A DNA stretch of 64,000 nt, from assembly GCA_947365915.1 (NCBI GenBank), contig CANAXT010000001.1:7347-71346 (forward strand). The letters run 5' to 3'. Position 1 is the stretch's first letter; each line of letters starts with the position of its first letter. Under the pieces are notes generated by a model. The model saw nothing but the letters and a program-made list of their open reading frames with translations. It had not been told where the DNA came from and ran no database searches. This DNA comes from an uncultured Mycoplasmatota bacterium (GTDB lineage Bacteria > Bacillota_I > Bacilli_A > RF39 > UBA660). Positions 2,963-64,000 of the stretch are shown in pieces. Made by a program: the position numbers and the translations under genes.

Positions 2963-5045
2963 TTTTTAACACATCCTTTGTTATTTTCCCATTTGATATT
3001 TCTATAAATTGATCAAATAGATCTCTATTTTCCATTCTATGTGATACCATGATTATGGTTTTGTCTGGAAATTGTTTAAATATTCGTTTTAAAATTCTCC
3101 GTTCCATATTTTCATCCATTTGACTGGTTGCTTCATCAAGTAATAGTATGTTAAATGGACGTAATAGTGTTCTAGCCAGTACGACTCTTTGTTTTTCTCC
3201 CCCTGATAAATTGGCACCATTTTCTTCTAATAGTAAGTGATGACCAAGATGATTTTTTTTGATAATTTCATCTACCTCAGTTAATTCTAATATTTCTTGA
3301 TATTGATGATCGGCTTTTTTTCCTAGTAAAATGTTTTGATCGATGGGGCCTGTAAATAGTAGTTCTTTCATGGAGATATAGATGATGTTTTGTTCTATGG
3401 TTTCCGATTTTAAGTCTACTATGTCTATGCCATCAATAAAAATCGAATTTCTCGTTGTTTCATAATATTTCATGAGTAATTTTAAAATGGTACTTTTCCC
3501 GTTTCCGCTTTTTCCAACTAATAAAATTTTGTTTCCTATGTTTGTATGAAATGTTATGTTTTTTAGTATTGGTTGGTTTGCAAAATACGAAAATGTTACA
3601 TTTTTAAATTCTATTTTTCCTTTTATGTCTTGTTCATAAAGTCCTAATTCTTTTTGTTTATAGAATAGATTGGATAGTCTTTTCCATGCTACTTTTACTT
3701 TTTTCCACTCTTCTCCTAAGCGTAATAAGTTTCTAATTGGGTCTATAAAGTAAATAAAAAGGGAATGAAATAATAGTAATGATGCAATAGATAGTTGATT
3801 TTTAGAGATCAGCCATACTCCAAGTCCTAAGGTAAATAAAATTGAAAAGTCAAACAGGCTTTGGTTTAATATTTGTGATTCGTTTTGAACATATTCTAAT
3901 TTTTTGGTTCTTTTCATGTATTTCGCATACTTTTTTTCAAATGTTTGTTCTACTATGGTTTTCAAGTGGCTTCCAAATACGCTTTCATAACCACTGATGG
4001 CTTCTACCATATATGATGTCACTTTGGCGTTTTCTTCTTCTAGTTGTTCTATTTTTTTGTGAATTCGTTTTTGGTAAATATAAAATATGGTAATATAAGT
4101 TAATAGTGTTATGATCGCAATTAGAAACAGTTTTTCATGTATTAAGTAAAGTAAGCTTCCACTGATGAAAAAGAGAGGTAAATCCATCAGTGAAGAAAGT
4201 ATCACGGTTGCAAGAAAAGAACGTATGACACCGATGTCTTGTATTCTGGCAATCATTTCTCCAGTCGTTCGATTTTTGTAATGTCGATAAGGAAGCTCTA
4301 GTATTTGATGAAATATCGTTTTCATGAATTGGAAGTCTATTTTTTGATATACGTGGAAGAACAGTTTGTTACGAATAAAACTGCTTCCATTTTTCAAAAG
4401 AATAAATCCTGCATACAAGAAAATAGAAAAGTAAAGATACAAGGTTTCATTATGTTGTTCTGTCATTGAAATAAAGTGTTGTAATAATGTGGAATAGAAA
4501 AGAGAAAAAATGGTAACTATCATTGAGAGAAGAACCATAACTATCATTGTTTTTTTCATTTGTTTTAACAAATTTAAAAAATAGTTTTTTAAAAAGGGGT
4601 CTTTGTCAATGTAAGTAATCGGGGTTTTTGGATAAAATGTCAAAATGATATGGTTCCATATTTGTTCAAAGTTTTGAAATGATATTTTTTCAATTCCTTT
4701 GGCTGGGTCTCCAATAATCATGTACCGTTTTTTCGGGTTTATTTCAAATAGGACAATATAATGATAATATGATTCGCTTAGTAGTACATGCGCAATACAA
4801 GGGAGTATGATTGTTTCTTCTGTCAGTTCTTGAAAGTCTCCTTCCATTCCTTTTGCTTCGAATCCAAGTTGTTTGGCAGTTTCTACAATCTCGCTCGCTT
4901 TCACTCCGTTTTTGTTTACATGTAGTTTGTCTTTTAGTTGTTCGTAGGGAACATGTCCATGGTAATATTCTATGATCATAGCTAGACATGCTGCTCCACA
5001 ATCTTTATAATCTTCTTGTCGTATGATTGGATATTTTTTTCTCAT
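2955..5045 (-). CDS. bacteriocin ABC transporter with N-terminal C39 peptidase domain (LagD/LcnC/ComA family)
   Basis: The N-terminus QEDYKDCGAACLAMI is the C39 Cys motif. Six TM segments follow. Walker A is GKSGNGKST, the signature is LSGGEKQR, and Walker B is LLLDEAT. RBS AAGGAGG is present. Confidence 0.9.
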   Translation of the reverse strand: MRKKYPIIRQEDYKDCGAACLAMIIEYYHGHVPYEQLKDKLHVNKNGVKASEIVETAKQLGFEAKGMEGDFQELTEETIILPCIAHVLLSESYYHYIVLFEINPKKRYMIIGDPAKGIEKISFQNFEQIWNHIILTFYPKTPITYIDKDPFLKNYFLNLLKQMKKTMIVMVLLSMIVTIFSLFYSTLLQHFISMTEQHNETLYLYFSIFLYAGFILLKNGSSFIRNKLFFHVYQKIDFQFMKTIFHQILELPYRHYKNRTTGEMIARIQDIGVIRSFLATVILSSLMDLPLFFISGSLLYLIHEKLFLIAIITLLTYITIFYIYQKRIHKKIEQLEEENAKVTSYMVEAISGYESVFGSHLKTIVEQTFEKKYAKYMKRTKKLEYVQNESQILNQSLFDFSILFTLGLGVWLISKNQLSIASLLLFHSLFIYFIDPIRNLLRLGEEWKKVKVAWKRLSNLFYKQKELGLYEQDIKGKIEFKNVTFSYFANQPILKNITFHTNIGNKILLVGKSGNGKSTILKLLMKYYETTRNSIFIDGIDIVDLKSETIEQNIIYISMKELLFTGPIDQNILLGKKADHQYQEILELTEVDEIIKKNHLGHHLLLEENGANLSGGEKQRVVLARTLLRPFNILLLDEATSQMDENMERRILKRIFKQFPDKTIIMVSHRMENRDLFDQFIEISNGKITKDVLKNG

Positions 5046-47639: not shown

Positions 47640-47850
47640 AATCACAATCCTATAAGGACGTGATTTGACGTGGTACCACCTTAATTTGTAGAGATCTCTA
47701 CCTTGAAACTGTAACGCGTTACCGTTATATGTTTGGCATATAAAACTCCAAGCTGAATTCATAAATGGATATGATCTATTTCCACCAACCATAGACTCTC
47801 TTTTCATATCTCTATTTATTACTACTTCTCTTCTTTGTTTTTCAAATTTA
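47640..47850 (-). promoter_or_regulatory. T-box riboswitch leader (Phe) with promoter
   Basis: T-box AAUUAAGGUGGUACCACG. Terminator AAUCACGUCCU-UAU-AGGAUUGUGAUU followed by U8. Specifier UUC-A. Promoter TTGTAA-17-TACAAT. Confidence 0.8.
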
Positions 47851-62392: not shown

Positions 62393-62432
62393 AAAAAACA
62401 ATTCAAGACTACAAGCTGAATTGTTTTTTCTT
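62393..62432 (-). terminator. bidirectional terminator downstream of tyrS
   Basis: ACAATTCA-N11-TGAATTGT stem flanked by A7 and T7 runs. Confidence 0.65.
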
Positions 62433-63669
62433 ATTCAAAATCTACTTTTAAAAATACTTTTTTTCCTTTTTTTAAAATTAATGAATTTTCGTTTAAATCT
62501 TTAGTTGTAACTAATTGTTCAGTAGATTTTACCTTTTCTTGATTTAAAGAAAGACCATTTTGTTCAATCAATCTTCTTGCTTCTGATTTAGAAGATACTA
62601 GATTTGTTTCAATAAGTAAATCAACAATATTGATATCTAATAAATCTTTTGAAATTGTAATTGATGGCATATTTTCTGAAATGCTTTTATTACTAAATAA
62701 TTCTTGTGCTGTTTGTTTCGCTTTCATCGCTTCATCTTCACCATGAACTAATTTAGTAACTTCAAATGCAAGTAATTTTTTTGCTTCTCTAATATCTTTT
62801 TGACATAGCTTTTTAATGTCAGACACTTCCATTCTAGTAAAGAAAGATAAACTTCTTTCAACATCTTCATCAAACGAATTTATCCATGCTTGGAAAAAAT
62901 CAAAAGGAGTAGTTTTATCCCTCGATACCCATAATGTACCTGAAGCAGTTTTTCCCATCTTTTCTCCATCTGCTTTTATAAGTAATGGACAAGTAAATCC
63001 AAATAATGGATCAATTTTCTTTCCTTCACTAAAGCCAATTTTACGAGAAAGGTCTGCTCCCGCTAAAATGTTTCCCCATTGATCTGAGCCACCAATTTGC
63101 AACCTACAGCCAAATTCTTTATTTAAGTAAACAAAGTCAAATGCTTGCATTAACATGTATCCCATTTCAAGAAATGTTAATCCACCATTTTCTAATCTTT
63201 TCTTATAACAATCAGCAGATAACATATTATTAACATTAAAATGGACTCCAATGTCTCTCATAAAATTTACATAAGTCTTATCACAAATCCAATCTGCATT
63301 ATCAACAATAATAGCCGGGTTTTCTCCATCAACTTTTACAAATCTTTTAACTAGCTCTTTTACCTCTGCCTTATTATGAGCAACTTCTTCCTTAGATAAC
63401 ATTTTTCTCATATCACTTTTACCCGTTGGGTCACCAATCAAAGCAGTAGCTCCACCAATTAATATAATTCCATGATGTCCGAAATCTTGTAACCATCTAA
63501 ACATAGTAAGTGCGAAAAAATGTCCTATATGAAGACTATCAGCAGTAGGATCAATTCCTAAGTAGAAAGTCATAGGCTTTCCATTGACTAAATCAATGAT
63601 TTCACTTTCGTGTGTTAAATCTTTTACATATCCTCTTTCTTTGAGAATATCAAATAATTTCTTTTCCAT
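62431..63669 (-). CDS. tyrS: tyrosine--tRNA ligase
   Basis: HIGH motif in DPTADSLHIGHF, KMGKT (KMSKS-like), and a C-terminal S4 domain. Confidence 0.9.
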   Translation of the reverse strand: MEKKLFDILKERGYVKDLTHESEIIDLVNGKPMTFYLGIDPTADSLHIGHFFALTMFRWLQDFGHHGIILIGGATALIGDPTGKSDMRKMLSKEEVAHNKAEVKELVKRFVKVDGENPAIIVDNADWICDKTYVNFMRDIGVHFNVNNMLSADCYKKRLENGGLTFLEMGYMLMQAFDFVYLNKEFGCRLQIGGSDQWGNILAGADLSRKIGFSEGKKIDPLFGFTCPLLIKADGEKMGKTASGTLWVSRDKTTPFDFFQAWINSFDEDVERSLSFFTRMEVSDIKKLCQKDIREAKKLLAFEVTKLVHGEDEAMKAKQTAQELFSNKSISENMPSITISKDLLDINIVDLLIETNLVSSKSEARRLIEQNGLSLNQEKVKSTEQLVTTKDLNENSLILKKGKKVFLKVDFE

Positions 63670-63751
63670 ATTTTTTTATTCCTCCTTGGTATTTTGTATA
63701 GTTAATTAAATTACAATCATCAAAGTAATAATAGTAATAGTCACTATCCAT
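63650..63751 (-). CDS. tyrosine-codon-rich upstream ORF (33 aa) overlapping the tyrS start
   Basis: MDSDYYYYYFDDCNLINYTKYQGGIKKYGKEII, with 8 Tyr including five consecutive. RBS AAGGAGG is 8 nt upstream. The ORF runs through the tyrS SD and ATG in the +2 frame. It stops at UGA 17 nt inside tyrS. It is not in the ORF track. Confidence 0.5.
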   Translation of the reverse strand: MDSDYYYYYFDDCNLINYTKYQGGIKKYGKEII

Positions 63752-63754
63752 ACA

Positions 63755-64000
63755 AACCACCTCCTTGAAATAAAAAAAGAGCAAAACATCCAAAAAGGAC
63801 GAATTGCTCGTGGTACCACCTTTATTTGTAATAATAGTTTATTACCTCTTATTGATAACGGATACTATCCGATTTAAAATCATCATTTGTAATTCATTAT
63901 TTTAATTTTGCTTATTTTCACCAGCCATAAGCTCTCTACAAATTATTTTAAAATAATTACTTTGAATGAATCACTTTTTAATTAACTGACTAGATTATAC
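63755..64000 (-). promoter_or_regulatory. T-box riboswitch leader (Tyr); the promoter -10 sits at the window edge
   Basis: Stem I AGAGAG. Specifier UAC-A in AAUUACAAAUG. T-box AAAGGUGGUACCACG. Terminator GAGCAA...UUGCUC followed by U7. A TATAAT lies at 63994-63999. Confidence 0.8.

Follow-up and report, generated by a model that had tools for sequence, protein, structure and literature searches.

What does a short, tyrosine-rich open reading frame (ORF) do when it is placed between the terminator of a tyrosine T-box and the tyrosyl-tRNA synthetase (TyrRS) gene that this T-box controls? The question is raised by a 64-kb stretch of DNA from an uncultured Mycoplasmatota bacterium (here called the window), in which tyrS and all features of its leader are on the minus strand, and in which an upstream ORF (uORF) with a run of Tyr codons follows the T-box and continues through the Shine-Dalgarno (SD) sequence and the start codon of tyrS. 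On balance, the uORF and the Tyr T-box in front of it appear to form a two-layer sensor of tRNA(Tyr) charging, a Tyr analogue of the rtpLP-rtpA system of Bacillus subtilis.

The T-box leader, with stem I, specifier loop, stem III and the antiterminator/T-box sequence, covers positions 63792..63983 and matches the Rfam family RF00230 over the full model (1-219; 97 bits at a gathering score of 93, E = 2.7e-21). The specifier codon, UAC (Tyr), is at 63889..63891 by alignment to the consensus of this family (GAAauuca), in the context GAA-U-UAC-A, which is kept in all related leaders. In the minimum free energy fold, the T-box ends in an intrinsic terminator (63772..63809) that consists of the stem GAGCAA..UUGCUC (63809-63779) and a 7-U tract (63778-63772). 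The extended SD of the uORF, AAGGAGGUG, follows at 63758..63766, with its core AAGGAGG (63766-63760) 12 nucleotides (nt) from the U-tract and 8 nt from the uORF start codon AUG (63751-63749). The uORF itself, MDSDYYYYYFDDCNLINYTKYQGGIKKYGKEII, has 33 codons and a UGA (63650..63751), and Tyr accounts for 8 of the 33 codons, five of them consecutive (UAU UAC UAU UAU UAC, codons 5-9, 63725..63739), which are the proposed stall site. Further downstream, the tyrS SD (AAGGAGG, 63681..63687) is translated as Q-G-G within the uORF, the tyrS AUG (63669) is traversed in the +2 frame, and the uORF ends with the UGA at 63652-63650, 17 nt past the A of the tyrS AUG. The gene tyrS (62431..63669) codes for a tyrosine--tRNA ligase of 412 amino acids (aa), identified by the NCBIfam equivalog TIGR00234 (410 bits). 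This arrangement, from the T-box terminator to the stop codon inside tyrS, had been described in the initial annotation of the locus and is confirmed in all its points. UGA is a genuine stop in this genome: TGA terminates 7 of 36 long ORFs, and ORFs of at least 250 codons called with translation table 11 cover 71% of the window. The remaining two frames across the uORF region are full of stops.

A chance origin of the Tyr run is excluded. In a six-frame scan of the window, the run in the uORF is the sole run of at least five Tyr codons, and first- and second-order Markov simulations give an expectation of 0.023-0.03 such runs per 64-kb window, with any such run occurring in 6-9 of 300 simulations. 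The resulting rate of about 2e-7 per position is in line with the rough figure of one in a million that had been put forward with the description of the locus.

That the uORF and its Tyr run should recur in orthologous tyrS leaders was an expectation of the initial annotation, and it is clearly borne out. Sampling by the TyrRS protein, in which the uORF played no part, gave 80 loci from 80 species-level genomes, nearly all of them metagenome-assembled genomes of uncultured gut "Bacilli/Tenericutes", including Clostridium sp. CAG:1000 and Firmicutes bacterium CAG:582, and 36 of the 80 have the uORF (L001-L033, L036, L044 and L050). The 34 loci with the most similar TyrRS (L001-L033 and L036; 71-94% identity) are all among them, while L044 and L050 have a TyrRS with 66% identity. 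In about 25 further loci, among them L043 and L048, which are close relatives of carriers, tyrS directly follows the T-box, and the distance between T-box motif and start codon is 58-84 nt versus about 150 nt in leaders with the uORF. In every carrier the uORF is open through the tyrS SD. Its end lies at +20 relative to the tyrS start in 27 of 37 cases (the 36 loci and the window), and otherwise at -6, +28, +46 or +77, or the uORF is fused in frame to tyrS; as the ends vary, the C-terminal tail is not conserved as a peptide, whereas the crossing of the ribosome-binding site (RBS) is. The stop-terminated uORFs have 23-49 codons, the Tyr run in relatives comprises 2-6 codons, and net length differences within the uORF are all multiples of 3 (-9, -6, -3, +3). 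The SD of the uORF reads AAGGAGGUGAU in relatives, which is the full complement of the usual Firmicute 16S 3' end, and its core AGGAGGTG as well as the uORF AUG are invariant across 64 distinct leaders.

A wider view was obtained by a metagenome scan with the pattern SD-N5-7-AUG GAU NNN KAY UAY KAY, which requires Asp or Tyr codons at uORF positions 4-6 and matched 108 stretches, about 90 of them T-box-linked leaders. As the pattern itself fixes codons 4-6, these matches were used only for the context, that is, for the T-box, the downstream gene and the ORF length. Across lineages, the uORF has the core M-D-x-D-Y-Y-Y, in which Asp2, Asp or Tyr at position 4 and the Tyr codons are retained, the third codon is unconstrained (AGU, CCU, GUU, GAU, GAG, AUU or AAU), and GAC alternates with GAU at codon 4 and UAU with UAC in the Tyr codons. 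The 37-nt head from the SD to YYY is 81-97% identical between lineages, their T-boxes just 61-77%. Judged by these alignments, the deep, cross-lineage pattern of conservation looks coding.

The element is also found in front of other genes. The same leader with T-box, uORF and hairpin (described below) precedes a 395-aa TyrRS that is only 33% identical to the one of the window (L090: 900-2084; also on the contigs L086, L088, L092, L102, L109, L122, L140, L150 and L188), and in these leaders the uORF stop is 8 nt into the gene. The last roughly 60 residues of this TyrRS, an S4-like C-terminus, are about 65% identical to those of the window's TyrRS, and the difference to the 33% overall identity points to a replacement of the catalytic part in situ with retention of the leader; the gene thus looks like a mosaic. 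In a higher-GC organism (L157, 3399-5237), a T-box with the specifier UAC (107 bits) is followed by GGAGGUGGUUUU-AUG GAU CCU GAC UAU UAU UAC (MDPDYYY), which is in frame with a gene of the tryptophanase/tyrosine-phenol-lyase family (NF009709, 610 bits). A degradative or reversible lyase behind a starvation-induced T-box is itself unusual. Other short forms precede tyrS (L044, L050 and L105/154/173), where MDSDYYY and about 11 further codons are in frame with the gene. The window also holds an internal control, the T-box of pheS-pheT (47651-47844, minus strand; 116 bits), the terminator of which runs straight into the pheS RBS with no leader ORF. The uORF is therefore specific to Tyr and is not a trait of all T-box leaders in this genome.

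Which function can be expected for such an element? Reportedly, Chen and Yanofsky (Science 2003; Mol Cell 2004) found a 10-codon rtpLP upstream of rtpA in the at (anti-TRAP) operon. As far as the accounts in two further sources go, a Trp T-box precedes rtpA of B. subtilis, together with a leader peptide, RtpLP, that contains three Trp codons; translation of RtpA is prevented when that of RtpLP runs to completion, while stalling relieves the block (PMC2311275, PMC10327191). The tyrS leader shares with rtpLP-rtpA a T-box with a terminator, followed by a short ORF with its own SD before the structural gene, consecutive codons for the amino acid of the specifier in this ORF, an extension of the ORF, in the window and most relatives, to the RBS of the structural gene, and Firmicute hosts; an action after transcription, in which completion blocks and a stall frees the RBS, would likewise be common to both. 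The two systems differ in the amino acid, which is Trp there and Tyr here, and in the target, which is a regulator there and here the cognate aminoacyl-tRNA synthetase, in addition to a second TyrRS type and the lyase. The leader ORF has 10 codons and ends at the SD in the one case, whereas in the other it has 23-49 codons (33 in the window) with 2-6 Tyr codons and in most cases extends into the structural gene before its stop. The uORF start of the tyrS system is buried in a long conserved hairpin, and some relatives have the uORF and the gene in the same frame. rtpLP and the tyrS uORF share no sequence homology.

From anatomy and conservation we infer that the uORF is translated, that ribosomes can stall on it, and that the stall favours tyrS expression, and these steps can be combined with the known function of a T-box. 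By homology to the T-box family, uncharged tRNA(Tyr) lets the polymerase read through the terminator, and ribosomes would then load at the very strong SD directly behind it. With plentiful Tyr-tRNA(Tyr), the whole uORF would be translated across the SD and the AUG of tyrS, and elongating and terminating ribosomes would occlude the tyrS start, so that less TyrRS would be made from leaky or residual transcripts. Under a shortage of Tyr-tRNA(Tyr), ribosomes would stall at codons 5-9, leaving the tyrS RBS free and the 5' arm of the hairpin open, and the stalled ribosome may in addition stabilise the mRNA, a stall effect that is known for ermC. The ribosome protects roughly 12-15 nt 3' of its A site, and the last Tyr codon is 37 nt from the core of the second SD in the window, about 20 nt in L050 and L105, about 37 nt in L157, and at least 17 nt in all architectures, so that the stall site leaves the downstream SD uncovered. 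The T-box would thus report uncharged tRNA(Tyr) and the ribosome on the uORF charged tRNA(Tyr). The suggestion of the initial annotation that a stall on Tyr codons changes the occupancy of the tyrS RBS is supported by analogy, as its logic is that of the experimentally established rtpLP-rtpA precedent.

One feature that the initial annotation did not contain is a long conserved hairpin that encloses the uORF and buries its AUG. This imperfect hairpin (63688..63761) has a 5' arm (63761-63726) that runs from GGUG of the first SD through the uORF AUG and the Tyr run, a CUU loop, and a 3' arm (63722-63688), just 3' of which the tyrS SD is positioned. An outer helix is formed by the terminator U-tract UUUUUUUAUUUC (63767..63778) and GGAAUAAAAAAA (63671..63682), which comprises the last two G of the tyrS SD and the spacer between this SD and the AUG, and two AAGGA motifs sit in a symmetrical internal loop between the hairpin and the outer helix. 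The hairpin region has a fold z-score of -5.2, and hairpin and outer helix are both supported by the RNAalifold consensus. Among the 64 distinct leaders, 93% of the cells are paired, versus 39-58% in controls with slid partners, in a test for which the structure was taken from one of the aligned sequences, which are closely related. Eight pairs are changed on both sides, for example G-C to G-U to A-U at columns 31/97 in the stem that bears the AUG, and an A:U pair of the outer helix shifts its register in step on both strands (columns 12/116 and 13/115). In partition-function folds, the tyrS SD core is 0.6-0.9 and the tyrS AUG 0.7-0.9 unpaired in most long-type leaders, while the spacer between them is 0.01-0.3 unpaired. 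The extended SD could invade the hairpin, and the hairpin may gate the loading of the uORF, or it may protect or expose the AU-rich leader to RNases.

The 3' strand of stem III of the T-box, CUAUUAUUAC (63836-63827, minus strand), has the same letters as a part of the Tyr run (63740-63725, minus strand), and the partner of this strand, GUAAUAA, resembles a GUAAU in the 3' arm of the hairpin. An alternative pairing of the T-box with the uORF hairpin is conceivable on the basis of these matches.

Several observations weigh against charging sensing by a ribosome on the uORF. The AUG of the uORF is fully paired in the predicted hairpin (probability of being unpaired about 0), which would hinder initiation, and a folding constraint that mimics a stalled ribosome leaves the predicted accessibility of the tyrS SD unchanged, in a calculation that ignores sterics. 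UAC is changed to UGC (Tyr to Cys) inside the run in about one third of the leaders, one leader has only two consecutive Tyr codons, and the run of L005 reads Y-C-Y-Y-C. In L145, codon 17 of the uORF is followed by an in-frame TAA, a change that also breaks the lower stem. Within the clade of the window, uORF changes are about equally distributed over codon positions 1, 2 and 3 (roughly 9/12/9, a hand count from the alignments), and synonymous sites of the uORF are nearly frozen, while synonymous codons of tyrS differ at 35%. The uORF is absent in the close relatives L043 and L048 and is thus clade-restricted and dispensable, as would be expected of a fine-tuning layer. The short-form uORFs (L044, L050, L105/154/173 and L157) finally are in frame with the main gene and have no stop, and the logic of a terminating ribosome that blocks the SD therefore is not applicable to them; the geometry with the uORF end over the RBS holds for the window and most relatives, while L145 stops early.

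The most probable alternative is an element that acts as RNA only. The hairpin and the helix of U-tract and spacer would then be a gate for RNase III or mRNA decay, a 5' stabiliser or a protein-binding site, and the ORF with its Tyr codons would be a by-product of UAY:RUA pairing in an AU-rich stem, with no ribosomal sensing of Tyr. The fold statistics and the two-sided pair changes given above are what such an element would be expected to leave, and its G-U pairs render the structure strand-specific. Mean pairwise differences among the leaders of the window's clade amount to 5.6% for the stretch from SD to AUG, 8.4% for the uORF and hairpin, 10% for the T-box and 30-34% for the flanks, compared to 19%, 13% and 38% at the first, second and third codon positions of tyrS, so that the conservation of the hairpin equals or exceeds that of the T-box and far exceeds that of third and even of second codon positions. 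Most substitutions in the uORF are nonsynonymous yet compatible with wobble pairing (UAC to UGC, GAU to GGU or AAU, UAU to UGU), and an element of this kind would explain the frozen synonymous sites. As the substitutions are also about evenly spread over the codon positions, local selection acts on the RNA; within the clade, the alignments thus suggest selection mainly on the RNA sequence rather than on the peptide. However, the short-form leaders (L032, L044, L050, L105 and L157) lack the long hairpin and retain SD-AUG-MDxDYYY with synonymous variation, and an RNA-only function explains neither the invariant extended SD at an ideal spacing from an invariant AUG, nor an ORF that is open through the tyrS SD in every architecture, nor the association exclusively with T-boxes that have a Tyr specifier. 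The covariation support is also modest. An RNA-only element is thus rather unlikely, and the alignments are better described by two coexisting layers of constraint, a deep, gene-independent core, always behind a Tyr T-box, of SD-AUG-MDxD-YYY with an ORF that extends to the next RBS, and the long hairpin as a clade-specific elaboration on it.

Somewhat less likely still is a uORF that is translated without sensing anything. In this case the SD and the uORF would serve as a device for ribosome loading, standby or translational coupling, or as a 5' stabiliser similar to STAB-SD, and would increase the translation of tyrS or the half-life of its mRNA once the T-box has been read through, independently of the level of Tyr-tRNA. 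The extended invariant SD directly after the terminator hairpin fits such a device, as does the uORF end that adjoins or overlaps the tyrS start, which is the usual geometry of translational coupling; moreover, the tyrS spacer, which is predicted to pair with the U-tract, is partly opened in folds with a ribosome on the uORF start, and the in-frame short forms would yield product from both starts. What such a device leaves unexplained is why every lineage has retained Tyr codons, in runs of 3-6 and exclusively behind Tyr T-boxes, that of the higher-GC L157 among them, and why it is absent at the pheS T-box of the same genome.

That the uORF is a functionless remnant, either of a decayed N-terminal extension of an ancestral TyrRS or of a palindromic insert between duplicated AAGGAGG, would be compatible with in-frame, stop-free versions (L044, L050, L105 and L157) and with the two AAGGAGG copies that flank the hairpin, but it is very improbable in view of a difference of just 6-8% in SD and uORF (far less than in the flanks and at third positions of tyrS, and a conservation far above neutral), of the lack of a second copy in the window, and of a leader that was retained although the TyrRS catalytic domain was replaced. 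The related possibility noted in the initial annotation, a duplicated tyrS N-terminus, fails as already stated there, as the uORF has no similarity to one. The in-frame short forms do suggest a historical link of the uORF to an N-terminal extension. A multi-copy palindromic insertion similar to miniature inverted-repeat transposable elements was rejected as the main explanation with no second copy in the window at up to 3 mismatches and the conservation far above neutral. The idea of a general trait of T-box leaders in this genome was discarded with the pheS leader. As to a TyrRS operator or tRNA(Tyr) mimic, no GUA-containing loop was found in the hairpin, and the window has no tRNA-Tyr gene for comparison.

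Other leader-based systems are similar to the charging sensor proposed here in parts. trpL, hisL and pheL are leader-peptide transcription attenuators, and in Escherichia coli, pheM-pheST controls an aminoacyl-tRNA synthetase. In Firmicutes, His-leaders and yfmH belong to the same class (PMC9413887, PMC7491331). The tyrS leader shares with trpL, hisL, pheL and pheM a short leader ORF with the regulatory codon run in the 5' arm of a hairpin, and pheM provides the precedent for an aminoacyl-tRNA synthetase operon under the control of codons for the amino acid of that synthetase. These systems switch between antiterminator and terminator, with an intrinsic terminator after the leader ORF, whereas the sole terminator of the tyrS leader is upstream of the uORF. 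A terminator scan of 63400-64000 matched nothing but the inner stem and T-run of the T-box terminator, and the hairpin is followed by AAGGAGGAAUAAAAAAA, which has no U-run. A second transcription attenuator was therefore rejected, and the comparison with pheL and hisL that the initial annotation had drawn is inexact, as both are transcription attenuators and a second terminator is absent here. Leaders of the ermC/ermA and cat/cmlA type have in common with the uORF a ribosome stall in a leader ORF within the 5' arm of a hairpin, with post-transcriptional action in Firmicutes, but they sequester the downstream SD and AUG and release them by the stall, and their stall signal is an antibiotic, where tRNA charging is proposed for tyrS. 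As the tyrS SD is outside the hairpin, is predicted to be largely accessible, and is not affected by the stall constraint, the hairpin is not a sequestrator of the erm/cat type, and an erm-type release of the tyrS SD is not supported by ribosome-constrained partition-function folds. As regards the T-box family RF00230, a genuine Tyr T-box with a terminator makes up the upstream 190 nt, while uORF and hairpin are wholly outside the model, the match to which ends at 63792. For the region of uORF and hairpin (63766-63650), no other Rfam family was found at E <= 1. In the translational T-boxes of Actinobacteria, a sequestered SD replaces the terminator, and a leader ORF is absent. A Pfam search with the uORF peptide gave no match, and the database copies, for which a 47-aa, TTG-extended form of the uORF was used as the query, are unnamed or called "unknown" and have no domains.

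A bolder version of the charging sensor can be imagined, in which uORF and hairpin are a portable, ribosome-actuated cassette for charged tRNA(Tyr) that has been kept or moved before non-homologous Tyr-related genes (the two TyrRS types and the lyase). The output would then be other than a plain block of the RBS: a ribosome stalled on the Tyr run would hold the hairpin open, and the mRNA would toggle between a protected or translatable state and an inactivated one, for example by sensitivity to RNase III or RNase J, so that one leader would read uncharged tRNA with the T-box and charged tRNA with the ribosome. This version is a doubtful one at present. NAY codons (Asp, Tyr and Asn) make up 13 of the first 21 uORF codons (63751-63689, minus strand), and they are the set that is read by queuosine-modified tRNAs. 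AT-richness combined with the constraints of the hairpin could be the reason for this richness; still more speculatively, the leader might report the queuosine status of tRNAs and not tyrosine alone.

Some further features of these leaders can be mentioned here. A candidate -10 box of the tyrS leader promoter, TATAAT, was read from the sequence at 63994..63999 (minus strand), and a promoter scan could not confirm it because the -35 region is beyond the window end. A second T-box, which precedes a valS-like gene (MLDKKY...), is present in L111 (minus strand, with the T-box motif near position 3166 of the reversed locus) and in L162 (638-800), and behind its terminator there is a conserved 12-codon uORF that has its own SD and reads MKYKIWGDHGRV or MKFIFKGDYVRV, each followed by a stop. 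These uORFs end 45-60 nt before the valS SD and have only 1-2 Val codons, with GUC as the last sense codon. It may be that uORFs behind the terminator occur repeatedly among the T-box leaders of this clade. L084 (2279-2610) has a junction that coincides precisely with the hairpin loop, where T-box and uORF 5' arm continue into the interior of a different ORF (..DILFYKRAQLLTSDILH..), which may be queuosine-salvage-like. A chimeric assembly or a rearrangement mediated by the hairpin is the probable origin of this junction. Behind the leader of L159, an unrelated ORF of 311 aa takes the place of tyrS.

Literature searches gave no description of a T-box combined with a leader peptide for tyrS or any other synthetase gene. 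To our knowledge, the anti-TRAP operon of B. subtilis is the single studied case in which a T-box as sensor of uncharged tRNA is combined in tandem with a ribosome on a leader peptide as sensor of charged tRNA. The kind of system is thus known from rtpLP, and judged from the loci compared here, the amino acid, the aminoacyl-tRNA synthetase as the target, the longer overlapping ORF, the conserved hairpin and the modular spread would be new. For annotation, a simple rule can be given, which is to look systematically for short ORFs rich in the amino acid of the specifier between a T-box terminator and its gene; such ORFs are now called "hypothetical" or missed. If the proposed function is correct, it would be the first such layer on a T-box-controlled aminoacyl-tRNA synthetase, and the tandem-sensing design would not be a one-off. 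Its Tyr version would guard the cognate synthetase across a broad clade of uncultured gut Bacilli, would outlive the replacement of the catalytic domain of that synthetase, and would recur before a lyase that degrades tyrosine or tryptophan.

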